Below, in pieces: positions 458 to 18,477 of a stretch of 22,774 bases of DNA (positions are counted from its first letter, which is position 1; every line of letters begins with the position of its first letter). The position numbers and the translations under genes were made by a program. The stretch is from Myxococcota bacterium (GTDB lineage Bacteria; Myxococcota_A; Polyangia; Polyangiales; Sandaracinaceae): the NCBI GenBank assembly GCA_036149055.1, contig JAYZQJ010000112.1, forward strand, positions 1 through 22,774, given 5' to 3'. Below the pieces are notes generated by a model. That model was not told where the DNA came from. It made no database searches and was given only the letters and a program-made list of their open reading frames with translations.

Positions 458-537
458 GGCAGGGGGCGACGGTCGGCGACGCAACCTCTCGGAGGTCGGG
501 GCGATGGAGGTCGGTGCAATCGCCGGAAGGAGCCTCC

Positions 538-1851
538 ATGCGCTACGTGTTCGTTCTCTCGCTCTCGTCCGCTCTGACCTTCGCCGCGCCTCCGTCCGCG
601 TTGGCCCAGCGCTCGACGGCGGGCGCACCCGTGACGCCGAGCGATCGCGGGGCGTCGGTCGAGGAGACGCCGCCGGTCTGGATCGCGACGCGCGATGGGT
701 TCCGGGAGCTGCGCGTTCGGGTGGCTCATGGTGAGGACTCGCTCGACGGGCCGACGCACCTGGCGGTGGAGGCCGTGACGGACGATGTCCGGATCGGCCG
801 GGAGGATCTGGTCGGGCAACGAGTGACCGTGGGGGTTCGGCACTCCGCGGGGACGCTCTTGCGAAACGGGACCGTGGTGGACGCGCGGGTGTCGGTGGGG
901 GTGAGCCCGGACACGCAGGAGAGGGAGGCGTTCGTTCTGCTGCAGATCGAGGACGACCTCCACCGGCTGAGGCGCGCGGTGCGCTCGGCGATGTACGAGG
1001 CGGTGACCGACGTCGAGGCGCTCGAGGCGACCTTCGCGCGGCACCCGGACGTGTCGGTGGAGCTCCGGGTGCGGCGCGCGTTGCCGGTGCGGGCGCACGT
1101 CGCGCAGTACGAGGAGAGCGACTTCGGGTTCGTCTACCGGCTCGCGGACCGCTCCGGGCTGGTGATCCGGACCGAGCATCGGGCGCACGGCCACACGATC
1201 GTGGTGGAGGACGCCGACTTCGTCCCGCGCGTCCGGACGACGCTGACCGTCGGGGAGCAGCTGGAGCGGATCGATGTGAACGCGATGCGGGGGCCGAGCG
1301 GCTACCTGCTGTACGACGGCGACCACCTCGCGAGGGCGCTGCGCCCCGGCGCTCGGGTCGAGCAGGCGGTCGCGCTCCGGGTGGCGCCGGAGGGGAGCGC
1401 CGCCGCGCTCCGTCGGAGGGCCGCCGCGCTGCTGGCCGCCGCCAACGCCCCGATCGTCAGCGCTTCCGGCGAGATCCCCGGGGAGATCGGGACGCGCGTC
1501 CGGGTGCGCGGAGCGGAGTCGTCCGAGGCGAACGCCGACTTCCGGGTCGTGCGGCAGAGCTGGATGGCCGCCGGGCCGATGGGCGTGCGTGTCGACATGG
1601 AGCTCCGCGCGGCCGAGGTGCCGCTGGTGGTCATGCACCGCAACCCGCCGGGGGTGGGCATGCAGTCGGCGGAGGTGCTCCGCGTCGAAGGAGCGCGAGC
1701 GCGGCTCCGGCTCGACTGGACGCCGGATGGGCGAGGGAGGTTCCCGGAGTGCTGGGTGGCGCTCGACGGTCTGGAGCCGCCGCGTCCTGGCGCGCGCGTC
1801 CACCTCGGCTTCGAGCACGGCGACCCGGAGCGGCCCTTCCTGCTCAGGTGA
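538..1851 (+). CDS. VgrG-like / phage late-control GpD (gp27-like) plus gp5 OB-fold protein with N-terminal signal peptide and no beta-helix spike (437 aa)
   Basis: SD GGAAGGAG precedes ATG 538. MRYVFVLSLSSALTFAAPPSALA looks like a Sec signal. VgrG hallmark AQYEESDFGFVYRLADRSGL; OB-fold motif PRPGARVHLGFEHGDPERP directly before the stop. Confidence 0.8.
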   Translation: MRYVFVLSLSSALTFAAPPSALAQRSTAGAPVTPSDRGASVEETPPVWIATRDGFRELRVRVAHGEDSLDGPTHLAVEAVTDDVRIGREDLVGQRVTVGVRHSAGTLLRNGTVVDARVSVGVSPDTQEREAFVLLQIEDDLHRLRRAVRSAMYEAVTDVEALEATFARHPDVSVELRVRRALPVRAHVAQYEESDFGFVYRLADRSGLVIRTEHRAHGHTIVVEDADFVPRVRTTLTVGEQLERIDVNAMRGPSGYLLYDGDHLARALRPGARVEQAVALRVAPEGSAAALRRRAAALLAAANAPIVSASGEIPGEIGTRVRVRGAESSEANADFRVVRQSWMAAGPMGVRVDMELRAAEVPLVVMHRNPPGVGMQSAEVLRVEGARARLRLDWTPDGRGRFPECWVALDGLEPPRPGARVHLGFEHGDPERPFLLR

Positions 1852-2281
1852 GCTGAGGCGGCTCGTCGCGGACGGCGGCCTCGGAGGTGTCGGCGTCGAG
1901 GGCCTTCTGGATCACGCGGTTGGTGGTCTCGTCGAGGTAGCGGGTCAGCTCCTCGGAGATCTCCTTGAACTCCGGCCAGAAGACCTCGTCGAGGAACTTC
2001 TTGGGCGCTGACACCATCACCGTCGTGTAGCGCTGCCCGGAGTAGCGATACGGCTCGAGCCCGTAGCGGCGCATGAGCGCCATCAGGAGCCGGCGCGAGT
2101 AGTGGTCCGGCATCGAGAAGCGCACCTCGATCACGCCCTTGCCGCGCAGCTCCTCGAGCCGCTCCCGGATCCGGTCCCGCGCCTTGGCCGCCGCCTCGCC
2201 CTCTCCGTCCGAGCCGGGGTTGGCGTGCAGCGCTTCGATCCGGCGCAGCTTCTCGAGCAGGCGCTCTTCGTCGGGGCTCAT
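1844..2281 (-). CDS. Conserved hypothetical protein with DUF2786-like N-terminus (145 aa)
   Basis: SD AAGGGGAG and strong GC3 bias. EKLRRIEAL...GEGEAAAKA helical hairpin followed by FSMPD...RRYGLEPYRY..QRYTTVMV..P..F..EVFWPEF, a pattern I recall from conserved bacterial hypotheticals. Confidence 0.8.
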   Translation of the reverse strand: MSPDEERLLEKLRRIEALHANPGSDGEGEAAAKARDRIRERLEELRGKGVIEVRFSMPDHYSRRLLMALMRRYGLEPYRYSGQRYTTVMVSAPKKFLDEVFWPEFKEISEELTRYLDETTNRVIQKALDADTSEAAVRDEPPQLT

Positions 2282-4314: not shown

Positions 4315-6300
4315 CTACTCGACGTCCCAGCACCCCAGCGGGACGCCGGCCACGGGGAAGAGGCTGTCGGCGCGCATGGGATGGTTGACGCGCTTCTCGA
4401 AGGACAGGACGTAGCGGCCCGGGCTCAAGCTCCATCCCACGTGGCTCGCGACCGCGCCGGTGTCGTCGTGGAAGCCCCACGACCCGAGCGCTCGCGGCCA
4501 GTCGGCCCCCGAGTCGACCACCGGGCGGATGCCCTCCTCCTCGAAGTAGACGCCGCCCGCGAAGGCGAGGAAGGGCCAAGGCCGAGGCAGCTCACCGCCC
4601 CGTCGAGGAGGCAGCGGCGGCATCGGCTCACCGCCGAGCGTGAAGGTCACGTCGACGGTCACCGCGTCGAGCGACAGGTCGAGCGTCGTCGGCTCCCGGA
4701 CCTCACCGTCGAACACGACCCGGGCGCCCATCGGCCAGGGCGGGGTGGCCTCGTCGTCGTCGGTCGGCAGGTAGTACACCCGCACCGCGCCGGGCACGAC
4801 GCGCAGATCGCTCTCGGCGTCGCCCGCCCACTCGACCGCAGGGCCACCCGTCTCGACTTGCCACTTCGCCCCCGCACCGAGCGCGGGCGCGCCGTCGAGA
4901 CGCAGCTCGAGGGGCACCGTCGGCACCGAGATGTGGAGCGGCGCGCCATCGGCCACGACGACTCCCAGCTCGGCGTCGGGGAGCAACGTCGGGCAGCCCT
5001 CGTGCACGCCGCGCAAGGTCACGCGGTGCTCGCCCGGCGTGACGCGCACGCGGCGGTGCTCGCCCGGCGGCAGGACGAGGGGGAGAGGGTGGTCGCCCAC
5101 GCGCACCTCGCCGACGCAGCCCGGCGGGAGCTCCGCCGGATCCATGCCCTCGATCTCCACCGTGACGTCCACCTCGACCATGGGGACCTCCAGAGCGGCG
5201 GTCAGGCCCTCCGGCGGCACGACGATCTCGGGCAGCTCCGGCGGCGGCTGCGGCCAGGAGCGATCCGGGCAGACCTCGACCCGGTAGCGGCCCGGGACCG
5301 CCCAGCCTCGGGCGTGGCCCGCCGTGATGGACAGCTCCGGTCCACCCGTCCCGGGACGCCCCGCCTCGGGCAGTGGCTGGAGCCTCAGGCACGTCCCGGC
5401 GTCCGGCGCGGCGCCCCCGGCGAGCGTCACCGCGAGCTCCACCGGGGCCGCGGGCGCCTCCACCACGACTTCTTCGGCCAGCGCCTCTGCGGCGAGCTCG
5501 ATCGTCCCCGGCAGCACCCGGTTCGGCGCGCCGCTCCCGCGCAGCGTCACGAAGTACCGGCCCGGCGACATCGGGAGCAGCGTGATCGGCGCGCTCGCAT
5601 CCTCCACGTGGGCCCACTGATGCGTGGAGAAGTCGGCGGAGTGGACGATGACCGTTCGCACCCCGTCCCACTGCGGGGCGAGGTCCAGCCGCAAGGTGCT
5701 CGTCACCCGCTCGAGGTCGAAGTCGAGCCGCGTGGTGTCCTCGTCGATCTGGACGACGCCGATGTCTTCGACCAGCTCTCCCGCCTCACCCCACTCGATG
5801 CGCGCTCGGTATCGGCCCGGCGCGAAGCGCACGACCACGCTCTGGCGCCCGGCGTAGGGCAGGGGACCCTCCTCGACGAGCGGCACGCGGGCCACGTGGA
5901 TCTTGTGGTCCCCTTCGAAGAACAGGGTGCCGGGGACCGCGACGGTCTCGGGGAGGGGCTGGCCGTCGAGCGTGACCCGGACCTCCACCGGGTGCGCCGG
6001 GATGTCGATGACCGCGCGACGCCCGGTCCTGCACCCGGTGGTGCAGACGCCGCCGCTCCCGAGGTCGCACACCTCGCCGGTCTCGCAGTCCGCGTCCCCT
6101 TCGCAGACGATCTCGCAAGGCCCGCAGTCGACCGCGCCACCGCACCCGTCGTCTCGCGCCCCGCACTCGTCCGGCGCGCACGTGAGCGCGACGCAGGCGT
6201 CGGCGCGCCCAGCGTCGTCCCGCGCGGCGTCCGGGACGCGGTCGTGGGTCGCGCCGCAGCCGACGAGACAGAGCACGAGCATCGCATACCGCCGCGACAT
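4315..6300 (-). CDS. Large lipoprotein: Cys-rich N-terminal modules followed by tandem PEGA/carboxypeptidase-regulatory-like beta-sandwich domains (661 aa)
   Basis: Lipobox LVGC; CGARDDGCGGAVDCGPC and CEGDADCETGEVC motifs; recurring PGRYR/PGRYF/PGEHR/PGAVR/PGRYV beta-strand motifs. Confidence 0.8.
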   Translation of the reverse strand: MSRRYAMLVLCLVGCGATHDRVPDAARDDAGRADACVALTCAPDECGARDDGCGGAVDCGPCEIVCEGDADCETGEVCDLGSGGVCTTGCRTGRRAVIDIPAHPVEVRVTLDGQPLPETVAVPGTLFFEGDHKIHVARVPLVEEGPLPYAGRQSVVVRFAPGRYRARIEWGEAGELVEDIGVVQIDEDTTRLDFDLERVTSTLRLDLAPQWDGVRTVIVHSADFSTHQWAHVEDASAPITLLPMSPGRYFVTLRGSGAPNRVLPGTIELAAEALAEEVVVEAPAAPVELAVTLAGGAAPDAGTCLRLQPLPEAGRPGTGGPELSITAGHARGWAVPGRYRVEVCPDRSWPQPPPELPEIVVPPEGLTAALEVPMVEVDVTVEIEGMDPAELPPGCVGEVRVGDHPLPLVLPPGEHRRVRVTPGEHRVTLRGVHEGCPTLLPDAELGVVVADGAPLHISVPTVPLELRLDGAPALGAGAKWQVETGGPAVEWAGDAESDLRVVPGAVRVYYLPTDDDEATPPWPMGARVVFDGEVREPTTLDLSLDAVTVDVTFTLGGEPMPPLPPRRGGELPRPWPFLAFAGGVYFEEEGIRPVVDSGADWPRALGSWGFHDDTGAVASHVGWSLSPGRYVLSFEKRVNHPMRADSLFPVAGVPLGCWDVE

Positions 6301-6306
6301 CCACCC

Positions 6307-6331
6307 ACGGTAGCAACGGAGCGGTCATACT
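6307..6331. promoter_or_regulatory. Divergent pair of -10 elements giving leaderless starts
   Basis: TACCGT (minus strand, 6307-6312) lies 6 nt before ATG 6300. CATACT (plus strand, 6326-6331) lies 6 nt before GTG 6338. No properly spaced SD on either side. Confidence 0.5.
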
Positions 6332-6337
6332 GGAAAC

Positions 6338-7630
6338 GTGACCAACGAACCGCTCCCCTGGCCCCATGGCCTGCCGCGCGGCGACGTGGACGAGGCCCTC
6401 GTGATCGTCAGCGACGTCGAGATCGGGCCCGGCGGCCCCACCGACGACTTCCCACAGAGCGACTTCCTCGGAGACCTGCTGCTGCGGTACTGCGCGCCGC
6501 CCTTCGACGACGTGCCGCTGACCGTGGTCTTCGACGGCGACACCTTCGACCTGCTCAAGACCCCGACGAGCGACGGCGCCTTCCCGATCCACATCACCGA
6601 GGCGATCGCGCTCGACAAGCTCGAGCGGGTGCTCGCGGCGCACGCGCCGTTCGTGGAGCGCCTGCGTCGCTTCCTCGCTCACCCGGGCGCGCCGCGCATG
6701 ATCAGCTTCGTCGTCGGGAACCACGACATGGAGCTGCTCTTCGCGGGCGTGCAGGAGCGTCTCCGCGAGGCGCTCGGGCACCCGGAGCGGGTGGTCTTCC
6801 CCGGGATCCGTCACCAGCGCGGGCAGGTGCACGTGGAGCACGGGCAGCAGCACGATCCCCTCTTCGCGATCGACACCGAGCGGCCCTTCCTCGAGCACGC
6901 GGGGGAGACGGTGCTCAACCTCCCGTGGGGCACGGTGGCCCTGCTCGAGGTCGCGATGCAGTACCTGCCGGAGCTCCATCAGCTCGATCGGCTCAAGCCC
7001 AAGCGCGCGGTGCTCGCCGCGCTGCCGGAGGTGAAGGACCTGCTGCTCGGGGCCTACTGGCGCTACTGGACCCGCGACTTCTGGCAGAGCTACTGGGCCA
7101 CCCGCGATCCCCTCCGGCGCGTGAGCTGGTCGATGCTCAAGGAGGTCGCCTACCGGTTCGGCACCGGCGACCCGGACGTCTCCATGCAGGACTGCCGCCG
7201 CCTCCTCCACGACCGCCGCGACGAGACGACGCTCATCGTCCTCGGGCACGAGCACGAGCCGGCGTGGTGGAGCAGCGCCGGCCGCCGGGTGCTCCGGACC
7301 GGGTGCTTTCGCAACGAGTGGGAGCTCGACGTGGAGGGCGGCGCGCACCGGCTCCTGCCCAAGGTCTACGCCGAGGTGTTCCTCCGCGGCGACGTCCCGG
7401 TGCGCTCGCACCTGGTGGAGGTCGACGCGCCGCCGCCGCCGGATCCCATGGTGCCCAGCGATCTGGCGGAGGTGCTCGACCACCTTCCGCGGCTGCGCGC
7501 GGCGCAGGTGGAGGGGGACCAGCAGGCCCGCCGCCGCCAGGAGCACTCGGAGTCCCAGGAGCCGAGCCGGGGCCTGCCCGGGTTCGTCGAGACCCTGCGC
7601 GAGGTCCTGGGTCGCGCCGGCGGCGTGTGA
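6338..7630 (+). CDS. Calcineurin-like metallophosphoesterase (LpxH-like motif layout; 430 aa)
   Basis: Motifs IVSDVEIG, DGDTFD, VVGNHD, HVEHGQQHD and VLGHEH occur in canonical order. Confidence 0.85.
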   Translation: MTNEPLPWPHGLPRGDVDEALVIVSDVEIGPGGPTDDFPQSDFLGDLLLRYCAPPFDDVPLTVVFDGDTFDLLKTPTSDGAFPIHITEAIALDKLERVLAAHAPFVERLRRFLAHPGAPRMISFVVGNHDMELLFAGVQERLREALGHPERVVFPGIRHQRGQVHVEHGQQHDPLFAIDTERPFLEHAGETVLNLPWGTVALLEVAMQYLPELHQLDRLKPKRAVLAALPEVKDLLLGAYWRYWTRDFWQSYWATRDPLRRVSWSMLKEVAYRFGTGDPDVSMQDCRRLLHDRRDETTLIVLGHEHEPAWWSSAGRRVLRTGCFRNEWELDVEGGAHRLLPKVYAEVFLRGDVPVRSHLVEVDAPPPPDPMVPSDLAEVLDHLPRLRAAQVEGDQQARRRQEHSESQEPSRGLPGFVETLREVLGRAGGV

Positions 7631-7698
7631 GATCGCTCGCTCTCGTTTGCGCGCGGGCCGTTCGCACCTCACGTTTCGGCCCTTCCATGGGAGCCCAC

Positions 7699-9006
7699 GT
7701 GAAAAGCATCTCGATCGCGCTCGTCTCGCTCGCCCTCGTCGCCTGTGGCGACGGCATGGCCATGCCCGACCCGGACGCGGGCCCGCCGCCCGCCAACACC
7801 CTCCGTGACGGGGCCGAGGCGCAGTACGCGCCGGTCTACGAGGCGGTGAGCTACACGGCCGGCGGCTGGGACCGCGAGTGGCTGCCCAAGGACCTCGCGG
7901 TCCACCCGGACGGCCAGCTCTGGCTCGTGCAGCAGATGGAGCGCGACCCCGACTTCGACGATGACACCGAGTGCACCCAGCGCGGCCTCTCCGGCGCGCC
8001 GAACGACTGCGTCTCGCAGCAGGGCAGCACCGTCGCCATCCTCGATCCCGGCGCGGCCGAGCTGGCCACCGCCGAGAACGGGCGCGCGAACGTCGTCGTC
8101 GACGCCAACTCCTGGCACTTCATGCGCCGGCCGTCCTCGATCGCGTTCGGCGCGGCCGAGACGACCCTGAACCCCGACGACCCGGGCGCCGAGGGCGCCG
8201 GCCTCACCGAGCCGGTGACCTTCACCAACACCTTCGCCACCTGCCACGAGCACTGGACCGGCAACCCGACCGACATGCCGGCCTTCATCGGCCCGACCCT
8301 GTGGACCGCCGACCCGGCGATCTACAACGGCGAGAACGGCATGTTCGACTGGTCGAACGGCTCGCACCTCGACATGGTGCACGCCACTCAGTACTGCATG
8401 GGCATCGCCCACGAGCGCGACAACGTCTACTGGACGTTCAACGGCGCCGAGGGGACGCTCGACCTCTACGACTTCGGCAAGCCCCACTTCCAGGGTCACC
8501 ACGACCACTCGGACGGCGACGTCACCCGCTTCTACATGCCCGAGGGTGAAGAGCTCAGCCGGATGCCCTACGTGCCCTCGAACATGGTGCTCGTCGGCAA
8601 CCACCTCTACCTCGCCGACACCGGCAACGGCCGCGTGCTTCGCTTCGACATCGACTCCGAGGTGAGCGAGGAGTTCAGCTTCCGCACCTTCGAGAACCTG
8701 CCCGCCACCGGCATGGTCGGCATCGCGTACGAGGTGCTCCTCGACGCCGAGACCCTCGGCGCGGAGTGGGGCGGCGCCAGCCAGCCCAGCGGCCTGGCCA
8801 TGCTCGACGACGAGACCCTCGCGGTCGCCAACCACGCGACCGGCCACATCTCGCTCTTCGACCTCGACGGCACGCCGGTCCGCACCCTCGACACCGGCAC
8901 CGGGGTCGGCCTCGGCGGCATGACCGCGCTCGACGGCACCCTGTACTTCGTGCAGATGGGCGAGCGCCGCGTCTACCGCATCGACGTGATCCCCGCCGAG
9001 ATGTGA
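7699..9006 (+). CDS. Lipoprotein, probable beta-propeller (NHL/SMP-30-like blades) with a His-rich putative metal site (435 aa)
   Basis: GGAG precedes GTG 7699 (alternative start ATG 7687); lipobox LVAC. Blade motifs PKDLAVHPDGQLW, LYLADTGNGRVLRFD, PSGLAM..LAVANHATGHISLFDLDG. His clusters SHLDMVH and PHFQGHHDHSDG. Confidence 0.85.
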   Translation: MKSISIALVSLALVACGDGMAMPDPDAGPPPANTLRDGAEAQYAPVYEAVSYTAGGWDREWLPKDLAVHPDGQLWLVQQMERDPDFDDDTECTQRGLSGAPNDCVSQQGSTVAILDPGAAELATAENGRANVVVDANSWHFMRRPSSIAFGAAETTLNPDDPGAEGAGLTEPVTFTNTFATCHEHWTGNPTDMPAFIGPTLWTADPAIYNGENGMFDWSNGSHLDMVHATQYCMGIAHERDNVYWTFNGAEGTLDLYDFGKPHFQGHHDHSDGDVTRFYMPEGEELSRMPYVPSNMVLVGNHLYLADTGNGRVLRFDIDSEVSEEFSFRTFENLPATGMVGIAYEVLLDAETLGAEWGGASQPSGLAMLDDETLAVANHATGHISLFDLDGTPVRTLDTGTGVGLGGMTALDGTLYFVQMGERRVYRIDVIPAEM

Positions 9007-9869
9007 TCGAGCGGCTCGCGGCGGGACAGCCACTCCTCCGGGAGCGGCGTGCCCGCCGCGGCCAGCAGCCCACCGACGATCGCGCAGGTGGTGTCGCGAT
9101 CGCCCAGCGCGGAGACCGTGCGCCACATCGCCTCCGGGTAGTCGTCGCGCACGTGGGCGGCGACGAAGAGGCAGAGCGGCACGGTGTCCGGGGCGCTGAC
9201 CCCCGAGCCGTTCCCGAGCGCGACCGCCGCGTCGACCATGCCGGTCTCGGCCGGCAGACGACGCGCCGCCTCGATGCCCTCGCGCGTGTAGCCCCGCGGC
9301 GTGCGCGCGGCCGTGGCGTCCAGGAGCGCGCTCGCGGAGATCGCCGGCTCTTCGACCAGGATGGCGGCCGCCACCGCGATCGCGACGGCGCCGGCCATGC
9401 CCTCCTCGTGGGCGTGAGTCACCTCCGCGCTCGCCCGCGCCTCCTCCGCGCACCGATCGAGGTCTCCGGCGAACCAGGCGCCGAGCGGCGCGACCCGCAT
9501 GGCGCCGCCGTTGCCGAACGAGCCCTGCCCTCGGAACGCCGCGCGAGCGGCGCGCCTCCAGCCCTCGCCCTCACGGACGCGGCGGAGGATCTCGTGAGCG
9601 CCGGCGCCGTAGCCTCGGCTCGGGTCGTGGCGACGCGCGAACGCGGCCGCGAGCGCGTCCTGGTCGATCCGCCCGTGCGCCTCGAGCACCTCGACGACCG
9701 ACAGCGCCATCTGGGTGTCGTCGGTCCAGCGCCACGGACCCTCGGGCAGCTCCCGGTCCCGGATCCGGGCGTAGGCCTCGGCTGGCTCGAGGAAGAACCG
9801 TTCGCCGAAGGCGTCTCCGACCGAGAGGCCGTCCAGGGCTCGGAGCGCGCGATCGAGGGGGCTGACCAT
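8973..9869 (-). CDS. ADP-ribosylglycohydrolase (DraG/ARH family; 298 aa)
   Basis: Mg-binding and family motifs GDAFG, WTDDTQM, RGYG, GNGGAMR, VTH and GDRDTTCAIVG. Confidence 0.95.
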   Translation of the reverse strand: MVSPLDRALRALDGLSVGDAFGERFFLEPAEAYARIRDRELPEGPWRWTDDTQMALSVVEVLEAHGRIDQDALAAAFARRHDPSRGYGAGAHEILRRVREGEGWRRAARAAFRGQGSFGNGGAMRVAPLGAWFAGDLDRCAEEARASAEVTHAHEEGMAGAVAIAVAAAILVEEPAISASALLDATAARTPRGYTREGIEAARRLPAETGMVDAAVALGNGSGVSAPDTVPLCLFVAAHVRDDYPEAMWRTVSALGDRDTTCAIVGGLLAAAGTPLPEEWLSRREPLDHISAGITSMR

Positions 9870-9961
9870 GCCCGACGATGCCTCGCTCGAGCTCCCCAGC
9901 GCAACCACGGGGATCACAAAGAGGCTTGCGGTCTGTTTTGTGTCGTGGGAAAACGGGTTGC

Positions 9962-10690
9962 ATGGAAGTGTTGCTCGGTATTCTCCCCGCGGTCTTCTTC
10001 GCCGGCGTCATGGGGGTGGGCGCCATCGCCTTCGTCGTCTACGGCCAGAAGCGCCTGGGGCAGCTCCAGGAGCAGACCCGCGACTACACGGCGGGCGCGG
10101 TCGCGCAGCGCCTGGGCATGGAGGTCGTGCGCGGCGCGCCGGGCCAGAACCTCTGGATCACGGGCAAGACGGCGCTCGAGTCGCAGCACCTCGACATCTG
10201 CGTCGCGGGGCAGTGGGCGGGGGTGCCGGTCGACATCGTCTACTACCGCGACGTGCAGCACGAGAAGCACAACTGGACCGAGATGACCGTGCACTCCGAG
10301 TGGGAGGTGCGGATCGCCGCGCACACCGAGGCGAGCTTCGGTCACTTCGAGGTCATGTTCCGGCGGCCCAAGGCGCACAACACCGTGACCTCGTTCTTCC
10401 GCAACCCGATGCCCGAGCTCCGCACCGGGCACCCGCAGGTCGACGCGACCTACCGGGTGACGGGGGACAACCCGGCGATCGCCGAGGCGCTGGGCGAGCT
10501 GCTCGCGCCGCTCATCGGCCTCGAGTACGTGCACGTCGTGGGCGCGCCGGGCCGCGTCTCCTTCCGGCTCGACCGCGGCGCCGCCGGGCGCGGCAACGAG
10601 ATGATGGGCGTCGCGTACGCGCTCTACGACGCCGAGCGCGTGCTGAACGTGCTGACGGCGATCGTGCGGACCGCCGAGGGGCGCGCGTGA
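9962..10690 (+). CDS. Hypothetical protein with N-terminal membrane anchor (242 aa)
   Basis: One hydrophobic helix (LLGILPAVFFAGVMGVGAIAFVVY) followed by a soluble domain; strong GC3 bias. Confidence 0.8.
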   Translation: MEVLLGILPAVFFAGVMGVGAIAFVVYGQKRLGQLQEQTRDYTAGAVAQRLGMEVVRGAPGQNLWITGKTALESQHLDICVAGQWAGVPVDIVYYRDVQHEKHNWTEMTVHSEWEVRIAAHTEASFGHFEVMFRRPKAHNTVTSFFRNPMPELRTGHPQVDATYRVTGDNPAIAEALGELLAPLIGLEYVHVVGAPGRVSFRLDRGAAGRGNEMMGVAYALYDAERVLNVLTAIVRTAEGRA

Positions 10691-11118
10691 GCGGAGAGCC
10701 CGGTCGGGGCTGGGGCCCGCCGCCCGCCGCGCGCCCGAACCCGGTGGCCAACGGGCTGGAGGAGGAGCCCCTCGAGGACAGCGTGTTCCGGGCCTTCTTC
10801 GGCGTCCCCCGCTGCGTGCGCGGCGGGCGGCGCTGGCTCTACGTCGCGCTCACCCTCGTCGCCGTGCCGGTGCTCGTGCTCGGGTGGTTGATCTACTTCG
10901 GCCGGAGGCGGCGCAGCCGGCGTGGGCGCGTGGAGCCGTCCGCGGTGGGGGCGGTGCTGATCGTGGCCACCGGCGGCGTCTACCTGGGCTTCCTGATGCT
11001 GGGGGAGGTCTGGGGCTGGAACCCGCACCTGCTCGCCGCGCCGTGCACGCTCGCGCTCGCCGTCGCGCCCCTCGTCGGGCGCGTGATGTTGAAGCGCGGG
11101 GGCGCCGGCTCCGGCTGA
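10687..11118 (+). CDS. Small membrane protein, about 3 TM helices (143 aa)
   Basis: GTGA overlap with the upstream stop. Three hydrophobic segments with an Arg-rich inside loop (FGRRRRSRRGR). Confidence 0.7.
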   Translation: MSGEPGRGWGPPPAARPNPVANGLEEEPLEDSVFRAFFGVPRCVRGGRRWLYVALTLVAVPVLVLGWLIYFGRRRRSRRGRVEPSAVGAVLIVATGGVYLGFLMLGEVWGWNPHLLAAPCTLALAVAPLVGRVMLKRGGAGSG

Positions 11119-11130
11119 TACCGTCTCTCC

Positions 11131-11766
11131 ATGGAGAGGCTGGAATCCATCGCCTTCCTCGCGCTGTGCCTCGGCCTCCCGCTCGTCATGGCGGCGCTGC
11201 TCCTGCGCCACTTCGTGCGCTGGCTCCTCTCTCGGCGCCGCGAGGGGCGCGCGGTGAAGGCGCTGGGGTGGGAGCCCTCGGGGGAGGGCGCGCTCCGGGA
11301 GGCGCTCGAAGACGCGGGTCTCCAGGTCGGGGAGCGCACGCGTCTCTTCGACGTGCGGCAGCGCCGGGGGCTCGTCACCGCGAGGTGCCACCGACGTGCG
11401 ATGGGGGGCGCCAGGTCGCAGACGTCGGGCGAGCGCCGCGCCCTGCTCGTGGTCCCGCGCGAGGCGCCCGGTCCGCGGGGAGTGGCGCAGCCGAAGACCG
11501 GCGGTCTGCTCGAGTCGATCGTGCTCGGGCTCGGCGAGGCGCTCGGGGCGCGGGCGCTCGACCCGGAGGGGTGGTCGTGGGCCCACGTCCACGGGCCCGG
11601 AGGCTGGCTCTCCGCCGCCGACGCCGACGCGGTGCGCGCCCTGCTCGGGCCGCAGGATCGCCTCCACCTGGGAGCGCGCCACGTGGTGCTGTCCCGCCCG
11701 GCCGAGCATCTCGACGGCCTGCTCGAGGACGGCCCCGCGCTGTCCGAGACCCTCCGCCGGCTCTGA
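11131..11766 (+). CDS. Hypothetical protein with N-terminal TM helix (211 aa)
   Basis: Hydrophobic N-terminus IAFLALCLGLPLVMAALLL; TACCGT -10-like box 6 nt upstream; co-oriented with its neighbours. Confidence 0.7.
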   Translation: MERLESIAFLALCLGLPLVMAALLLRHFVRWLLSRRREGRAVKALGWEPSGEGALREALEDAGLQVGERTRLFDVRQRRGLVTARCHRRAMGGARSQTSGERRALLVVPREAPGPRGVAQPKTGGLLESIVLGLGEALGARALDPEGWSWAHVHGPGGWLSAADADAVRALLGPQDRLHLGARHVVLSRPAEHLDGLLEDGPALSETLRRL

Positions 11767-11813
11767 CTGGTCGCCGCGCGGCGGGCGCCTACCTCGTCCC
11801 CGGAGGAGACGAG

Positions 11814-12392
11814 ATGAACGCGCGCACGCTGATCCTGACGCTCGGCCTCGCGCTCGCCGGATGCGGCGGCGCAGAAGAGGCCGACGAGCCCGCCGAGACG
11901 ACCGCCGAGATGGAGGCCACGAGCGGGTCCGAGACCACCGGCGAGTCCTCGGCGACCCCGCCGCCCGGCCGCATGAGCGAGGTGCTCACGGCGCTGGCCG
12001 GGGATCCGCTCCTGACCGTCTACGTCGACGGACCGAGCGCGGTGGAGGACGGGCCGATCGCCGCGGGCGAGCCGGTCACCTACGAGACCCAGGTCTACGT
12101 GCACAACGACGGTGACCAGCCGGCCGCGATCGATCAGGCGCAGGTGAAGTTCGCCATCTACTCGACCGCTGACGACAGCCGCACGCCCTGCATCGACATC
12201 GACGACACCGGACCTCCGGAGCACGTGGGCCAGGACTCGATGGAGTCGTTCCGCGGCATCGCGCGCTGCACCTTCCCGGAGGCCGGGACCTACGAGGTCC
12301 ACACCTACGTCAGCTTCGCGGCGGGTGAGCTCGACGGAGACTTCGACATCGAGCGCCACTTCGCGGGCCGCATCGAGGTCGAGGCTCGGTAG
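11814..12392 (+). CDS. Lipoprotein with acidic linker and Ig-like beta-sandwich domain (192 aa)
   Basis: SD GGAGGAG; lipobox LAGC; GEPVTYETQVYVHNDGDQPA and FPEAGTYEV strands typical of Ig-like folds. Confidence 0.85.
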   Translation: MNARTLILTLGLALAGCGGAEEADEPAETTAEMEATSGSETTGESSATPPPGRMSEVLTALAGDPLLTVYVDGPSAVEDGPIAAGEPVTYETQVYVHNDGDQPAAIDQAQVKFAIYSTADDSRTPCIDIDDTGPPEHVGQDSMESFRGIARCTFPEAGTYEVHTYVSFAAGELDGDFDIERHFAGRIEVEAR

Positions 12393-12398
12393 GCGAGG

Positions 12399-12860
12399 TC
12401 ACAGCGACTCGCTCGCGACGGCGCTCCAGCAGGTGGGCGCGCACCCCGGGCCGTTCGGCATGTTCGGCTCGCCCGCGTCCACCGCGACGGTCTCGCGCCA
12501 CAGCTCCGTCCCGCCCTGCGAGACCGTCACGTCGACCGACTCGAACGGCGCGCCGTCGGGGTTGAGCTCGGCGTCGCCGAAGGGCTCCGTCAAGGTGACG
12601 ACCACCGTGGCCTCGTCCCAGCGCAGGGTGGCGAAGCGATAGCCGAAGCAGCTCGCCATGTCGTCCGCGGGCTCGGGCCCGACGGAGCACCGCAGCTCCT
12701 GCTGAGGCGTCGTGATCTCGACCTGGTAGGGGCCGCTGGCGAGGTCGAGGTCGTGGGAGAGGCGGACCTCCAACGTGGAGGTGCAGTCCACGAGGGTGCA
12801 CTCGAGCGAGCACGCGGTGAGCAGGCCCGCGAGCGCGGCGAGGGTGACGGTCGTGCGCAC
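12399..12860 (-). CDS. Small Cys-rich lipoprotein (153 aa); paralog of 22012-22413
   Basis: GTG start with TATGCT 6 nt upstream; lipobox LTAC; motifs CTLVDC, RCSVGP and PNGPGCAPTC. Confidence 0.85.
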   Translation of the reverse strand: MRTTVTLAALAGLLTACSLECTLVDCTSTLEVRLSHDLDLASGPYQVEITTPQQELRCSVGPEPADDMASCFGYRFATLRWDEATVVVTLTEPFGDAELNPDGAPFESVDVTVSQGGTELWRETVAVDAGEPNMPNGPGCAPTCWSAVASESL

Positions 12861-12903
12861 GGCCGGAGCATAGCCTTCCCATCGGCGCTTCGGGTCCTAT
12901 CGA

Positions 12904-13953
12904 ATGCGCGTGAGCTTCGAGCCCCGAACCGATCCTCGACGCGTGCTCGCGTGGAGCGCCGCCTGCGCGGTCGCGCTCGGCCTGGTGGTGCTCTTGCCGC
13001 AGGCCCTCTCGGTCGTGCTCGCGGGGTTCGCCGGGGTCGTGCTCGGGGCCGCGCTGACCGCGGCGAGCGAGGCGATCTCCAAGAGGACGCCGCTCGGGCG
13101 CAAGGCGGCGCTCGCGCTGGTCATCGCGCTCTCGATCGGCGTCCTGGCGTCCTACGTGGTGTGGGTCTTCGAGGTGACCGTGCCCGAGCTGCAGCGTCTC
13201 GGCGGGCGGCTGCCCGAGGCGATCGCCGAGCTCCAGGACCAGCTCCGCGGCTGGGGGCTCGGCCGGGTCGCGGACGCGATCGGCTCCCCGGCCGGCGCGC
13301 TCCAGCAGAGCGACACCCTGCGCGAGCGGCTGCTCGGCGTCTTCTCTTCGACCCTCGGCGGGCTGGCGGCCCTCGCGCTCATCGTCTTCGTCGGCATCTA
13401 CACGGCGATCCGTCCGGACACCTACATGGAGGGCGTGGTCGCGCTCTTCCCGCCGCGTCGCCGCCCGCGGATCCGCGAGATGATGTGCACCCTCGCGAGC
13501 ACCCTGCGCTGGTGGCTCGTCGGTCGCACCCTCTCGGCGGCGGTGGTCGGCGTGGCCACCGGGCTCGCGGTCTGGGCGCTCGGCGTGCCCATCCCCCTGA
13601 CGCTCGGCGTCGTGGCCGGCGTGCTGACCTACGTGCCCAACCTCGGCCCGGTGCTCACGCTCGTCCCCGCCGCGCTCCTGGCGCTCACGGTGAGCCCGAG
13701 CACCGCCCTGGTGGTGGTCGCCATCTACGCGGGCGTGCAGCTGGTCGAGAGCTACGTGCTCACGCCGATGGTGCAGGAGGTCGCGGTCGAGGTGCCGCCC
13801 GCGCTGCTCCTCTTCGCGCAGGCGCTCTCCGCGGTGTTCTTCGGCATCCTCGGCGTCGCGCTCGCCGCGCCCCTCGTCGCGGTCGCCCTCGACCTGGTGA
13901 AGGAGCTCTACGTCGAGGACCGGCTCGAGGCGGACGCCGCGCCGGCCGAGTGA
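12904..13953 (+). CDS. AI-2E family (PerM/UPF0118) transporter (349 aa)
   Basis: Multiple TM helices; motifs AGVLTYVPNLGP, VQLVESYVLTP and FGILGVALAAPL. Confidence 0.95.
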   Translation: MRVSFEPRTDPRRVLAWSAACAVALGLVVLLPQALSVVLAGFAGVVLGAALTAASEAISKRTPLGRKAALALVIALSIGVLASYVVWVFEVTVPELQRLGGRLPEAIAELQDQLRGWGLGRVADAIGSPAGALQQSDTLRERLLGVFSSTLGGLAALALIVFVGIYTAIRPDTYMEGVVALFPPRRRPRIREMMCTLASTLRWWLVGRTLSAAVVGVATGLAVWALGVPIPLTLGVVAGVLTYVPNLGPVLTLVPAALLALTVSPSTALVVVAIYAGVQLVESYVLTPMVQEVAVEVPPALLLFAQALSAVFFGILGVALAAPLVAVALDLVKELYVEDRLEADAAPAE

Positions 13954-14909
13954 CGCCCACCGGTCGGGAGCCGCACCTCGCAGGCCCCGCTCGCCGCGTG
14001 CATCACCGCGCTCTGGACCGTGATGTCCATGCGCACGCCCGGGTCCATCAGCACCTCGAAGGCCTCGTCGAAGGAGGCGGGCCGCGAGCGGAGGGCCAGG
14101 TAGGTCGCGCGGTCGAAGCGCTTGCAGGAGGTCGCGGCGAGCGCGTCGTCGGGGCGCTCGAAGCCGTCGTCGATCGCGCGATAGTCGTTCGTCACCGTCA
14201 CCAGCCCGTTCGCCGGCGTCCGGAGCGCGGAGCGCGTGCTCGTCCGCTCGATGACGACCATCTCGCCGGCCTTCGTGCCGGTGACGAGCAGCAGGCAGTC
14301 CGACGCGATCGGCGTGTCGGCCAGCCGAATCACCGCCTCGTCGTAGCTGCGGGCCTCGTCGAAGACCTGTCGCAGCAGCAGGGTGACGGGGAGCGCGAGG
14401 GGCTTCGGCTCGGCGCTGATCACGGCGTTGAGCGAGACGGCGAAGCGGCCCTCGGCGACGCCGGTGAACACACCCACGAACCCGGGCCAGCCGACGGAGC
14501 GGTAGGGGGTGGGCGCGCCGTCGTACTCGCAGACCAGCGTGTGCTCCGAGAGCATGCGGCGGTCGGTCCACCAGTCCAGGTTGCGCGCGTGCAGCGGGCC
14601 CTCGGGCGTGTCGACCGCGAACGCCGTGCACCCGAGCACCGCGTGCATCGCGTCGTAGTAGAGGTTCGCGACGAGCGAGGCGTTCGGCGTGATCCCGATC
14701 TCGTCCGCGATCGCGTCGATCTCGGCGCCGAAGGCCTCCGGCACGCACGCCGCGCGGTACGCGTCGACCAGATCGCCGAAGACCTCGAGGCCGCCGAGGT
14801 CCCGCACGTAGCTGTCGGCCAGCTCGCGCGCCTCCTTCGCCCAGGCGCCGATCCCCTCCCAGCGCCGCCCGGGCGCCTTCGCCAGATCCACCGAGAACGT
14901 CCCGAGCAT
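13908..14909 (-). CDS. Ntn-hydrolase of the acid ceramidase/NAAA-C45 type (333 aa)
   Basis: N-terminal VDLAKAPGRRW resembles the acid ceramidase/NAAA vdLd.pP..RW motif. Autoproteolytic site G-CTAF, then HARNLDW, GWPGFVGVFTG, FAVSLN, VIER and TND. Confidence 0.9.
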   Translation of the reverse strand: MLGTFSVDLAKAPGRRWEGIGAWAKEARELADSYVRDLGGLEVFGDLVDAYRAACVPEAFGAEIDAIADEIGITPNASLVANLYYDAMHAVLGCTAFAVDTPEGPLHARNLDWWTDRRMLSEHTLVCEYDGAPTPYRSVGWPGFVGVFTGVAEGRFAVSLNAVISAEPKPLALPVTLLLRQVFDEARSYDEAVIRLADTPIASDCLLLVTGTKAGEMVVIERTSTRSALRTPANGLVTVTNDYRAIDDGFERPDDALAATSCKRFDRATYLALRSRPASFDEAFEVLMDPGVRMDITVQSAVMHAASGACEVRLPTGGRHSAGAASASSRSST

Positions 14910-14914
14910 GCCGC

Positions 14915-14932
14915 ACCGTAGCACGCTATCGT
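14915..14932. promoter_or_regulatory. Back-to-back -10 elements (bidirectional, leaderless)
   Basis: TACGGT (minus strand, 14915-14920) lies 5 nt before ATG 14909. TATCGT (plus strand, 14927-14932) lies 6 nt before ATG 14939. Confidence 0.55.
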
Positions 14933-14938
14933 GACGGG

Positions 14939-15584
14939 ATGCCGCGCTCCGACGTGCTGACGGGCAAGCTCGACGCGCGGGATCGCGCGACCCGAAGGCG
15001 GCGGCGATCCCGGACGGCGGCGTCCGTGGATCCGCACGATGTCTTCGAGGCGTGGCTCGCGGGCTCGCGGTACGCGGGCGTCGCGCCGGGGGCGGTCGCG
15101 CGGATCGACCTCGACGCGTTCGTACGCGACAGCGGCGAGGTCCCGCTCTCCCCTGCCGAGCGCCTGCGCTCGCCCGGGGTCGACCTGCAGCGACGGCGGG
15201 GACCGGCGCCGCCGCCTCAGCCCTCGACCGCGTGTTCTGAGCGATCCGCTCGCGCACCTGTATCGGGCCTACGCGCTCTGGGATCTCGAGCGCTTCGCGG
15301 ACGCGGTCGAGGCCTTCGAGGCGGTGCCGCTCGAGGGGCTCCGGGGCGAGCGCGCCTGGCGCGTGGACGAGGTGCTGGAAGAGACGGCGCGCTGCCGATT
15401 GTTGGCGGGTGACCCCATGGGAGCGCGCCGGGATTACGAGCGACTGGTCGCGCGGTTCGAGAAGGAGCCGCGGCGGATCCGGAAGCTGGACCCCGGGCTG
15501 ATCGATCGGGTGCTGGAGGAGCACTTCGCGGGCCCGCTGCTGGAGAGATATCGAGCCACGTGTGTCGCGGCGGGGCTCGTGTGA
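14939..15584 (+). pseudogene. Frameshifted tetratricopeptide-repeat (TPR) protein gene (pseudogene or assembly error)
   Basis: Protein-like sequence moves between frames: DPHDVFEAWLAG...ERLR in the 14939 frame, AAASALDRV in the 15052 frame, then TPR-like DPLAHLYRAYALWDLERFADAVEAFEAV...GDPMGARRDYERL in the frame ending at 15584. Confidence 0.6.
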
Positions 15585-15592
15585 CCGACCGA

Positions 15593-15598
15593 TACGAT
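15593..15598 (+). promoter_or_regulatory. -10 element driving the riboswitch leader
   Basis: TACGAT, one mismatch from TACAAT and two from TATAAT, 13 nt upstream of the aptamer P1. Confidence 0.5.
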
Positions 15599-15611
15599 TG
15601 AACCGACGACA

Positions 15612-15707
15612 TTCATCCAGACGAGGTGAGGGACCGGCCCGCAGAGCCTCGGCCAACCCGCTCCCGCCAGAGCCGCGGGGCGAAGGTGGCAACGCCGGAA
15701 CGATGGA
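15612..15707 (+). ncRNA. SAM-I (S-box) riboswitch aptamer lacking P4
   Basis: P1 TTCATC/GATGGA; J1/2 CAGA; P2 CGAGGT-GA-GGG-ACCGG-CCC-GCAGA-GCCTCG with kink-turn GA pairs; P3 GCC-AA-CC...GG-T-GGC with distal stem CGCTCCCGC/GCGGGGCG; pseudoknot CCGG 15634-15637 with CCGG 15695-15698. Confidence 0.88.
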
Positions 15708-15714
15708 GGAGCTC

Positions 15715-16362
15715 ATGGAACACGACATCAGAGAGCTGGCCCGCGACATCTCGAGCCGGCCGCGCTTGCTGGAGGCCGGGAGCGAGGAGGGCCGGCGCTT
15801 CTATCGCTGGAGCGTCACGGACCTGCTGGTGGCCGTCGACGCGCGCGAGGTGCACCTGGCCCGCAGGCGCGCCCGGGTGGCGATGCCGCGGGGTCGCGTG
15901 CCGGCGCTCATCCGCGCGACCGATCGCTGGGCGAAGGCGAGGGAGCGCTGGGCCGCGTTCTACGCGTGGGGGTTGCCGCCGGTGGGCGCCTTGGCCCGGT
16001 ACTACCTGCCGCCCTACGCCGAGGACCCCGTGCAGGTGGGAGGGCGCGGCGCGGCCGGCGCCTTCTCCGGGCGGGACACGCTGCGCGAGCTCCCGCCGAC
16101 GCCGGTCGCGGACGGAGTGACCCGGATCGCCGAGTGGTGGCGGGTCGAGGAGCGGGTCGGGCCCCCGGAGGGCGCGCTCATCGGCGAGCGCTGGACGGTC
16201 GGCGACGCGCTGGTGCTGGACGCGCTGCGCCGGGAGCTGGTCCTCGGGGTCGACGACGAGGAGCTCCGGCTCCGGAGCGGCGACGCGCTGGTGTTTCGCG
16301 CGATCTACTCGCAGGCGTGGCCGCGGAGGTCGCGCAGGAAGCGGTCGAGATCGCGCCGCTGA
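15715..16362 (+). CDS. Hypothetical protein downstream of the SAM riboswitch (215 aa)
   Basis: SD GGAGGAG precedes ATG 15715; GC3-biased codons; weak internal duplication (RWSVTDLLVAVDAREVHL / RWTVGDALVLDALRRELVL). The 3' end overlaps the convergent gene. Confidence 0.7.
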   Translation: MEHDIRELARDISSRPRLLEAGSEEGRRFYRWSVTDLLVAVDAREVHLARRRARVAMPRGRVPALIRATDRWAKARERWAAFYAWGLPPVGALARYYLPPYAEDPVQVGGRGAAGAFSGRDTLRELPPTPVADGVTRIAEWWRVEERVGPPEGALIGERWTVGDALVLDALRRELVLGVDDEELRLRSGDALVFRAIYSQAWPRRSRRKRSRSRR

Positions 16363-17270
16363 GCGCGCTCGAGGTTCGGGTACATGCCGGGGCGGGTGGT
16401 CGCGATCGCGGCCAGCCCGTCGTCGTCGCCGTAGAACGTGATCTCCTCGTCGCCGCGGCGGAAGCTGCAGCGGGCGGGCCCGCGATCGCACGCGAGGTCC
16501 TGCCCGGTGTAGCTGGCCATCTGCTCGGCGAACGCGGCGCGGGCCTCGTCGCCGCAGTGGTGATCGCTGACGAGCTCCGGCACGAGGCCGGTCTGCTCGC
16601 TGACGAACACCGAGAAGCGCGCGGGCGCCGGGCGATCGGTCGCGTGCGCGGCGCGCCAGAGCGCGCAGACCCCCTCGCCGGCCTCGACCCAGCTGCGGAC
16701 CGCGCGGCTGTCGGTGCGGGGCACGCGGGAGGCGTGGTGCACGATCGCGTCGAGGGAGAGGCGCTCGCCTTCGGTGCGGAAGTAGAACGAGTAGCCGCTG
16801 CCGTCCGGCGCCTGCGAGGTGCACCGCGAGAGATCGCGATCGCACCGAAACGTGTCGCCTTCGTTCACCGCGAACGAGGTCCCGGGGTGATCGGCCACCT
16901 CGCTGACGTCGCAGTGCTGGGCCACCCCCGTGCGCCCGCTGTCGTGCGTGCCGACGCCGCGCTGCGGATCGACCAGCCGCCGCAGCACGTCGGCCTCGAA
17001 GGTCGCACGCTTCAGCACCTCGAAGATCGCGTCGGCGTCTCCGGCGACGATGGGCTCCGGAGGCGCCTCCGCCTCTTCGGGCTCCGGCTCCGCCTCTTCG
17101 GGCTCCGGCTCTTCGACGGGCTCCGGCTCCGCCTCTTCGACGGGCTCGGGCTCGGGAGCTGGCTCGGGCTCCACCCGAGCCGTGGTGGTGGACTGGTTCT
17201 CCGTGGCGCCCCCACAACCGAGCGCGAGGACGAACCCGAGGCACAGCCAGCGGGGACTCATCTTCGACAT
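16305..17270 (-). CDS. Lipoprotein with Pro/Glu-rich stalk and two homologous Cys-containing domains (321 aa)
   Basis: Lipobox ALGC; EPEPEEA repeats; duplicated HC...CDRxxxRC...FY...L.AI...C pattern; TAGAGT 7 nt upstream. Confidence 0.85.
   Translation of the reverse strand: MSKMSPRWLCLGFVLALGCGGATENQSTTTARVEPEPAPEPEPVEEAEPEPVEEPEPEEAEPEPEEAEAPPEPIVAGDADAIFEVLKRATFEADVLRRLVDPQRGVGTHDSGRTGVAQHCDVSEVADHPGTSFAVNEGDTFRCDRDLSRCTSQAPDGSGYSFYFRTEGERLSLDAIVHHASRVPRTDSRAVRSWVEAGEGVCALWRAAHATDRPAPARFSVFVSEQTGLVPELVSDHHCGDEARAAFAEQMASYTGQDLACDRGPARCSFRRGDEEITFYGDDDGLAAIATTRPGMYPNLERAQRRDLDRFLRDLRGHACE
17053..17172 (-). repeat. Intragenic low-complexity tandem repeat encoding the Pro-Glu linker
   Basis: Repeated GGCTCCGCCTCTTCG / GGGCTCC units. 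Confidence 0.8.
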
Positions 17271-17355
17271 GGCGCGCACTCTAGCAGCGCGCGGGGAACA
17301 TGCTCCCGGCTCCCGACGTCCGAAAAAGTCCCGTGATTGTGTACGCTCGGGGGAC

Positions 17356-18477
17356 ATGACGTTCACGAGAGCCCTCCTCGTCGCCCTGCTCACCCTAGCT
17401 TGTGATGGCGAGACCGTGACCGACGCGGGCGTCGATCCGAGGGGAGACGCCGGCGTGGAGCTCGATTCGGGCCCTGCGACGGAGGACGCGGCGACCGAGG
17501 ACGCCGCGACCGGGGACGCGGGCGCCGAGGGCTGCCCGCCGGCCTCCGCCCTGGATCCGATGGCGCTCTCGCGGCGCACCCTCCGCGCCAGCGGCTGCGC
17601 CGCCTCGACCGCCGACACGCCCTGCGCCGACCACCTGCTCTACGAGCCCGCGAGCCCGGCGAGCGATCGCCTCTGGGTCATGCTGCCGGGCACGGGCATG
17701 GAGCCCGACAAGCACTCGTGGATCGGGCAGATCGCCGCGCACGTCGGCTTCCGCGCGCTGCTCCTCAGCTACGACACCTCGCAGAACGTCAACGAGTTCT
17801 GCCAGGCGGAGGGCACGCCGACGTGCCACGAGGCCGTGCGGGACCTCTTGCTCACCGGCGGCGAGCGGAGCGCGGGCGGCGAGACCTACCGCGTCGACCC
17901 CGCCCGCTCGGTCGTGGGGCGCCTGCTCGCCGTCCTGCGAAGCGAGGCGTGGGGCGCCGACTATCTGCGGCGAATGCCGGAGGGCCCGACCGACGTCGAC
18001 GCCGTCGACTGGAGCCGCGTGGTGGTCGTCGGCTTCTCGCTCGGCGCCGGGCAAGCGATGCGCCTCACCCAGCGCGCGCCGACCGCGGGCGCGCTCTTCA
18101 TCGACGGCGCCAAGGACCCGTGGGAGCGGGTCGGCGACACCACGCGCTACGCCGACTGGCCGACGCAGCCCATCCTGGCGCCCGCCGACGCGCTCTACGG
18201 CGCCTATCACGTGGACGGCAGCGACGTGGAGGCGCTCGTCGAGCAGTGGCGTCGCCTCGGGGTCACCGACGTGCGCGCCGACGTGGACGCCGCGGCGATC
18301 CCGCCCGACGCGCGCGTGCTCTTCACCGCGCAGACGCCCCCGAGCGGCGTCACGCCGCACCTCTCGATGGCGCGCAGCGCCGACATGCCGGCCGACGTGG
18401 ACGGCACCCGCGCGAGCGGCGCCGCGGACGTGCACCTCTACGCGGCCTACTCGAGCGTCTTCTGCGCGCTGAGGTGA
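17356..18477 (+). CDS. Lipoprotein alpha/beta-hydrolase (BPSS1187-like; 373 aa)
   Basis: Lipobox TLAC and DAG-rich linker; LWVMLPGTG oxyanion strand; DWSRVVVVGFSLGAG nucleophile elbow; HxD and PH motifs. The family name is from recall. Confidence 0.82.
   Translation: MTFTRALLVALLTLACDGETVTDAGVDPRGDAGVELDSGPATEDAATEDAATGDAGAEGCPPASALDPMALSRRTLRASGCAASTADTPCADHLLYEPASPASDRLWVMLPGTGMEPDKHSWIGQIAAHVGFRALLLSYDTSQNVNEFCQAEGTPTCHEAVRDLLLTGGERSAGGETYRVDPARSVVGRLLAVLRSEAWGADYLRRMPEGPTDVDAVDWSRVVVVGFSLGAGQAMRLTQRAPTAGALFIDGAKDPWERVGDTTRYADWPTQPILAPADALYGAYHVDGSDVEALVEQWRRLGVTDVRADVDAAAIPPDARVLFTAQTPPSGVTPHLSMARSADMPADVDGTRASGAADVHLYAAYSSVFCALR

Follow-up and report, generated by a model that had tools for sequence, protein, structure and literature searches.

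A VgrG-like hub protein with a predicted export signal and no needle in a Myxococcota bacterium, and the family to which it belongs

The window, i.e., the whole stretch of DNA that was analysed (22,774 nt), is one entire contig (C112) of a 9.9-Mb genome with 73% GC, referred to as G000. This genome falls into the same order as one with a protein labelled Polyangiaceae by its source, so the host is probably a myxobacterium. An ORF at 538-1851 on the forward strand encodes a protein of 437 aa (P0001), which an earlier note, made from the letters alone, had described as an orphan VgrG-like hub with a signal peptide and no spike. The following features were assigned to this gene and its surroundings.

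176-408, no strand: 41-bp tandem repeat with 5.8 copies, upstream of the gene, non-coding, part of a dispersed repeat family
525-532, forward strand: Shine-Dalgarno-like sequence GGAAGGAG, 5 nt ahead of the ATG
538-606, forward strand: predicted Sec/SPase I signal peptide, residues 1-23 (hydropathy; heuristic)
607-669, forward strand: Pro/Ala-rich tether ahead of the hub, 24 aa to the WxAT strand
670-1623, forward strand: gp27-like baseplate hub, residues ~45-362 (Pfam PF05954, model and structural alignment)
958-1215, forward strand: putative N0-like alpha/beta subdomain of the hub, containing the QYEESDFGFVYRL motif at 1105-1143
1663-1848, forward strand: gp5-type OB fold, residues ~376-437, with a shortened loop after W406 and ending in GFEHGDPERPFLLR
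1849-1851, forward strand: stop codon directly at the end of the OB fold, with no beta-helix needle after it
1844-2281, reverse strand: unrelated 145-aa gene, convergent, overlapping the VgrG-like stop by 8 nt, no Pfam family at E 0.001

Both the ribosome-binding motif and the codon pattern support 538 as the start. GC contents at the three codon positions were 0.78, 0.51 and 0.93 in the gene versus 0.70, 0.68 and 0.73 in the open frame upstream, which is the tandem repeat. A start further upstream, at 172, was ruled out, as it lies in repeat DNA with a non-coding codon pattern. At the other end, six of the seven members of the sequence cluster have 437 aa, and the remaining one, a fragment of 115 aa, ends identically; four sequencing runs mapped on the gene contained neither indels nor changes of the stop. 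An assembly error as the cause of the stop was ruled out by the end common to all seven cluster members and by the four runs. Searches for a σ70 promoter and a terminator at positions 1-2400 gave none. Contigs of one RNA run (X16) cover 540-818, 939-1247 and 1693-1930, i.e., at least three stretches, with none among those listed over 1248-1692. This partial cover in a single metatranscriptome is only a hint of transcription, since DNA carry-over is possible.

The convergent gene at 1844-2281 leaves no room for a needle gene downstream. That gene itself is under strong purifying selection (5 synonymous and 0 other variants). Further along the window, many lipoproteins with no assigned family are predicted at 4315-19916, one of which (4315-6282, 655 aa) has no Pfam match. 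The first 537 bases of the window match 161 of the 289 contigs, often at contig ends, and a 131-bp repeat occupies the other contig end (22505-22774). As repeats lie at both ends and the matches often lie at the ends of contigs, the dispersed repeat family probably breaks the assembly. At least half of the words were present in 15 of at least 24 sequencing runs; leaving out the possible source run, 14 rows from 8 studies remained, mostly with seawater or marine labels, besides two of invertebrate gut and two of coded organisms.

Both motifs on which the earlier note had built were found, the gp27-like QYEESDFGFVYRL at residues 190-202 and the OB motif GFEHGDPERP at residues 424-433, and the stop follows only 4 residues later, as had been stated. 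In Pfam, the Phage_GPD family (PF05954) matched residues 68-226 with an E-value of 3.4e-20 and 72.9 bits (cut-off 30.1), and the OB family Phage_base_V (PF04717) stayed under its cut-off (E 0.1). PF04717 is over its cut-off in the clade members P0146 and P0018. The curated models TIGR03361 (61.8 versus a cut-off of 186.35 bits) and TIGR01646 (46.2 versus 121.8 bits) were both missed. An AlphaFold2 model of P0001 built with 20 relatives reached a pLDDT of 88.4 and a pTM of 0.83, and its closest matches were T6SS VgrGs. Residues 45-437 of the model align with residues 5-447 of the 643-aa VgrG1 of P. aeruginosa (Z 31.8, rmsd 3.0, 386 residues). Because the alignment ends at residue 447 of VgrG1, hub and OB fold are complete and about 196 needle residues are missing. 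The OB fold of P0001 is thus supported by model and structural alignment, and the fold suggests that the protein would be a homotrimer.

Several parts of the fold are reduced. The second half of the hub has trimmed loops (134 aa versus a canonical median of 170), and many hallmark residues of canonical VgrGs are lost in the clade; W48, G99 and R101 are specific to it. In needle-bearing VgrGs, the loop after the conserved tryptophan of the OB fold packs on the needle. The median spacing between this tryptophan and the following phenylalanine is 20 in the clade (20 of 22 rows measured), 25 in other signal-bearing rows (6 of 7) and 28 in canonical rows (132 of 148). A needle profile gave no match on P0001; it matched 93 of 97 canonical rows and, weakly, 1 of 25 short rows with signal. 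The hub-OB segments of the clade are less acidic than those of canonical VgrGs (medians of -1.2 and -3.3 net charges per 100 aa), and the 15 other VgrGs of the host range from -4.0 to -7.4.

The N-terminus consists of MR, a hydrophobic stretch at residues 3-17, PP and a putative cleavage site ALA/Q (..PPSALA/Q), so the description of a hydrophobic signal ending in ALA was correct as judged by hydropathy, and the heuristic finds the features of a Sec/SPase I substrate. Signals were called with a crude heuristic of our own which passes 32% of the called G000 proteins; the meaningful control is the contrast with canonical VgrGs given below. A Tat signal was ruled out for P0001, which has no twin arginine. 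When clade members were compared by eye, the h-regions differed and the cleavage motif recurred (AxA, then Q in most close relatives), while in five members a lipobox cysteine takes the place of the cleavage motif. The tether is 17-38 aa long in 12 cleaved members versus 42-57 aa in the 5 lipoprotein members; in the P0001 model, pLDDT falls below 50 at residues 16-27. No collagen repeat was present among the family proteins examined. Given these features, we are highly confident that the N-terminus directs P0001 to the Sec route, with release by SPase I here and a lipid anchor in sister members. As cleaved and lipoprotein signals both occur within a single clade, the predicted export is its conserved property.

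Homologs were searched with phmmer using P0001 against 1.84 billion representatives of 50% clusters, which gave 363 matches at E 0.001, and the best 150 were examined. The 15 best non-self matches are 432-491 aa long and end 0-11 aa past the OB fold; 14 of them pass the signal heuristic. For the whole set, 149 rows from the best 150 of 363 were combined with P0001 and with an ortholog of another genus, which has 28% identity (151 rows), and 21 partial rows were dropped, leaving 130 which span hub to OB fold. Within these (best 150 of 363), 25 of the 30 rows with a tail of ≤ 30 aa carry a signal versus 3 of 100 with longer tails, the rows being related to one another. A second search with a different query yielded 120 rows, 118 of them new, likewise related, with a signal in 2 of 2 short versus 1 of 116 long ones; one of the two short rows is from Chloroflexi by source label. 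On viral contigs, 2 loci were found, and none of them was marked as short or as having a signal. For plasmids, the best 10 of 112 rows were all matches of 26-28%, and the ESM Atlas yielded generic GPD/OB clusters only, where signals are not visible. The closest homologs therefore share the combination of signal, hub and terminal OB fold that the earlier note had suggested looking for, and P0001 is, by sequence comparison, no one-off truncation; it belongs to a conserved family of identical predicted design.

Two rows combine a signal with a long tail. In P0134, whose sister is the needle-less P0081, a gp5-C needle domain is present; in P0128, the hub is preceded by an additional N-terminal region that weakly matches a coiled coil. 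Both are possible intermediates.

A FastTree phylogeny of 194 rows placed P0001 in a group of 22 rows (support 98), which contains no needle-bearing member among the rows treed. Nineteen of the 22 have a signal, two are incomplete at the 5' end and one starts just before the hub. P0001 itself sits on a long branch (1.6-1.8) and nests among T6SS VgrGs, not with the eCIS-type outgroup. The same design with signal and without needle appears elsewhere among canonical VgrGs, namely in P0122/P0032/P0020, in P0069, in P0127 and P0045, and in P0081. An IQ-TREE phylogeny of 47 rows agrees with this placement of the needle-less lineages, and an AU test rejected all needle-less rows with signal as one group (20 rows versus 27, p 0.0002). 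The AU group was picked after the first tree with two neighbouring rows added, and LG+G4 was used in the presence of long branches; for these reasons, the claim made from the trees is limited to at least two origins of the design, and no exact number is given. In the literature covered (full text search; titles and the starts of abstracts; few subscription papers; no supplements, where signal-peptide tables of T6SS surveys could mention some), no paper on a signal-bearing or needle-less exported VgrG was found. The predicted exported family is apparently undescribed and appears to have arisen more than once.

Distribution was determined with a profile of the clade N-terminus, scoring 13 candidates per genome. 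Strong matches occurred in 3 of 401 genomes of the order, each of which had contributed to the profile. Of 401 genomes of the phylum, 1 had a strong match, namely the host; the unpublished genomes G023 and G724 enter these denominators only. At the same 13 candidates per genome, the clade was absent from a genome of the same genus. A fourth carrier genome came from a separate scan.

A canonical VgrG is a spike which is assembled in the cytoplasm and fired. P0001 resembles the T6SS protein VgrG/TssI (P. aeruginosa VgrG1, PDB 4mtk; Foldseek TMq 0.75) in joining a gp27 hub to a gp5 OB fold, but it has neither beta-helix needle nor PAAR platform (~196 aa), it carries an export signal (by heuristic), a shortened OB loop and sub-cut-off NCBIfam scores, and its gene does not adjoin PAAR or effector genes. 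According to the available part of 10.1101/2024.12.20.629533, VgrG forms a hollow gp27 cup, with Hcp bound to loops at the base and PAAR to the top of the spike. Multimers of VgrG and a weak T6SS-independent release of VgrG1b are described in the available text of PMC3069435. Split VgrGs and phage hubs (T4 gp27, Mu gp44, pyocin R2) are likewise encoded without a needle, and the P0001 model reaches Z 18-23 to 1k28, 1wru and 6u5h; these hubs, however, are signal-less and encoded with a spike partner, whereas P0001 has an OB fold, a signal and no adjoining partner. The eCIS spikes of PVC (Pvc8, PDB 6j0m) and AFP (Afp8, PDB 6rbk) share hub and OB fold (Z ~24), but bear needles and are part of a sheath-and-tube machine. 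VgrGi of Acinetobacter is, in the available part of PMC6960284, also a VgrG homolog which does not serve as a working tip; it differs by its full length, a single point change in DUF2345 and a proposed action on T6SS assembly, and an export signal is absent from its description there. With respect to needle, signal and curated score, P0001 departs from VgrG in three features, and it ought not to be classified among T6SS tips.

The host has a T6SS of its own. Every G000 match to TssC, TssF, TssK, PAAR-like and gp5-C profiles is on a contig other than C112, in agreement with the previous statement that the window contains no PAAR or baseplate gene. One T6SS cluster (contig C31) and 15 other Phage_GPD genes were found. 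At the Hcp position of this cluster lies a 166-aa gene (C31:33909-34409) which the Pfam Hcp search missed. Some of the VgrGs in G000 are split (C182:61462-62901 and C59:46579-48045): they are signal-less, end ~32 aa past the OB fold, have an OB loop of full length in the printed sequences and are directly followed by a partner gene on the same strand. The partner genes (within C182:61462-64824 and C59:45011-48045) look spike-like at their ends, and a similar frame is on C198. Because such signal-less split VgrGs with a partner gene occur in the same genome, the loss of the needle is not new by itself; what was thought odd about P0001 holds for the pairing of this loss with a predicted export signal, which is its unusual part. 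A signal-bearing paralog of Hcp, PAAR, TssE or the needle was not found in G000, and on this ground the idea of an exported tube made with Hcp or PAAR that bear signals was rejected.

These split genes are also an argument for reading P0001 as a cytoplasmic split VgrG, whose hydrophobic N-terminus would not serve export and whose needle would be supplied in trans; a T6SS and 15 other VgrG genes are at hand in G000. Yet the split genes differ from P0001 in their ~32 aa past the OB fold, full OB loop, missing signal and position in the tree, the next gene here is convergent, the start at 538 is supported, and one carrier genome (G187) has no detected machine to join. We regard this explanation as very improbable.

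G187 is 100% complete in about 150 contigs and carries the lipoprotein form, which is the sole Phage_GPD match there. Seven family profiles (TssC, TssF, TssK, Hcp, PAAR-like, gp5-C and phage sheath) gave no match in this genome; the absence of Hcp is weak evidence, since the divergent Hcp of G000 escaped the same model as well. The model of the G187 protein (pLDDT 88.0) keeps the VgrG hub and OB fold. T6SS genes are present in the other three of the four carrier genomes (G000, G002, G301), and the sheath family PF04984 was found in none of the four genomes tested. As G187 keeps the gene without a detected T6SS, proteins of the P0001 type appear to be independent of a host machine. A spike partner gene downstream was found at none of the four genome loci, and the next gene is convergent and unrelated in both G000 and G187. 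No neighbouring gene is shared among the four loci, so the context does not point to adhesion.

Selection was estimated from variants in the four runs. The gene has 7 synonymous and 5 non-synonymous variants, giving a pN/pS of 0.27 (p 0.024 versus neutrality), while the two neighbouring genes have 0 (5 and 0 variants) and 0.07 (14 and 3). The gene is thus under purifying selection, loosely, and more weakly than its two neighbours. The earlier note had offered a domesticated, exported hub or a decaying chimera. The first is supported by the shared design of the closest homologs and by a pN/pS which is not near 1; for the second, the same two results give no support. Decay would mean a truncated VgrG, kept from poisoning the T6SS by a chance signal, which is now drifting. 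The long branch, the pN/pS above that of the neighbours and a dN/dS of 0.57 between two related metagenome loci (8 changes in all, 3 synonymous and 5 non-synonymous) would fit such a remnant, as would the ability of a defective VgrG to inhibit assembly (available part of PMC6960284). However, about 20 clusters with < 50% identity keep frame, signal, cleavage motif, end point and fold, and the variants in P0001 include no stop or indel; we hold this explanation, too, to be scarcely credible.

The design is found in two or more separate lineages, and also in one bacterium in which no injection machine was detected; it therefore seems that a component of a weapon was taken over as a binding protein of the cell envelope. 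The following chain is proposed. The N-terminus would lead to Sec export, with SPase I release in P0001 and lipid anchoring in sister members, for which the sequences argue strongly. Three copies would probably form the VgrG cup in the envelope on short Pro/Ala tethers, and the loss of the needle would probably leave the face of the OB fold bare on this cup. More speculatively, the OB face or the rim of the hub might bind a ligand on the surface of prey, kin or particles, and the protein might serve adhesion or recognition, either at the cell surface or on membrane vesicles. A trimeric binding module that is exported is favoured because the chain order of anchor or signal, flexible tether, hub and bare OB fold suits a tethered head. 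As an analogy, the available part of PMC10769870 describes the MAT fibres of Bdellovibrio, signal-bearing trimers resembling phage tails on the surface of a predator; these fibres are long, beta-helical and adhesive at their tips, and homology with P0001 is not claimed. Taken as a whole chain, including the binding step, the proposal of a VgrG-derived protein off the injection machine, which serves as an extracytoplasmic trimeric binding head for surface contact independently of a host T6SS, is in our judgement about evenly balanced between right and wrong. It is favoured ahead of a decoy, the main rival, and of a periplasmic scaffold.

In the decoy explanation, which we consider rather unlikely, the exported cup or OB face would bind incoming parts of T6SS, tailocins or phage tails, or effectors docking on VgrG, and so blunt an attack in the envelope. 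The clade is patchy, fast-evolving, stand-alone and repeatedly derived, as genes in conflict tend to be, and the gene is kept in G187 in the absence of a detected host T6SS. The first barrel is as conserved in the clade as in canonical VgrGs (0.27 versus 0.26). Against this, many canonical hallmark residues are gone, immunity or defence genes do not adjoin the loci examined, an incoming tube would already be capped on arrival, and most effectors loaded on VgrG also bind its C-terminal part. In favour of the decoy, a defective VgrG can inhibit the T6SS in the cytoplasm according to the available text of PMC6960284, by which truncations do not support secretion. The PAAR platform is the top of the spike (10.1101/2024.12.20.629533, in the part available), i.e., the part lost here, which speaks against the decoy.

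A cleaved Sec signal alone delivers a protein to the periplasm, where the trimer could offer three N0-like subdomains to secretins, TonB-dependent signalling proteins or pilus parts as a scaffold or signalling adaptor. The gp27/VgrG subdomain shares the N0 fold and resembles N0 of secretins and the signalling domains of TonB receptors, as given in the available part of PMC3093366. Within the clade, this subdomain is the best-kept part of the hub (0.35 versus 0.27 and 0.21), but canonical VgrGs conserve it still more strongly (0.44), and hence its conservation is not specific. Moreover, no partner gene travels with the hub gene, and for the scaffold of a core machine one would expect a less patchy distribution. 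This role is, therefore, judged to be less probable still than that of a decoy, and the tethered binding head remains preferred.

A wider reading, which we put forward only tentatively, is that the base of the T6SS spike was turned several times into an exported, needle-less trimer which intercepts or senses the injection machines or surfaces of others from the envelope. If true, this would be a defence or recognition by structural mimicry which needs no effector-specific immunity and works in T6SS-free cells. The predicted Sec-exported and partly lipid-anchored family, in which separate lineages lack the needle from one and the same position onwards and which has a carrier without detected T6SS, would mean that the hub fold has another use besides the spike, in the envelope. 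It provides a small single-gene object on which a general anti-injection defence or the recognition of surfaces by predators could be tested. The public label 'VgrG/TssI tip protein', carried by several members, may accordingly not always be a sign of an injection system.
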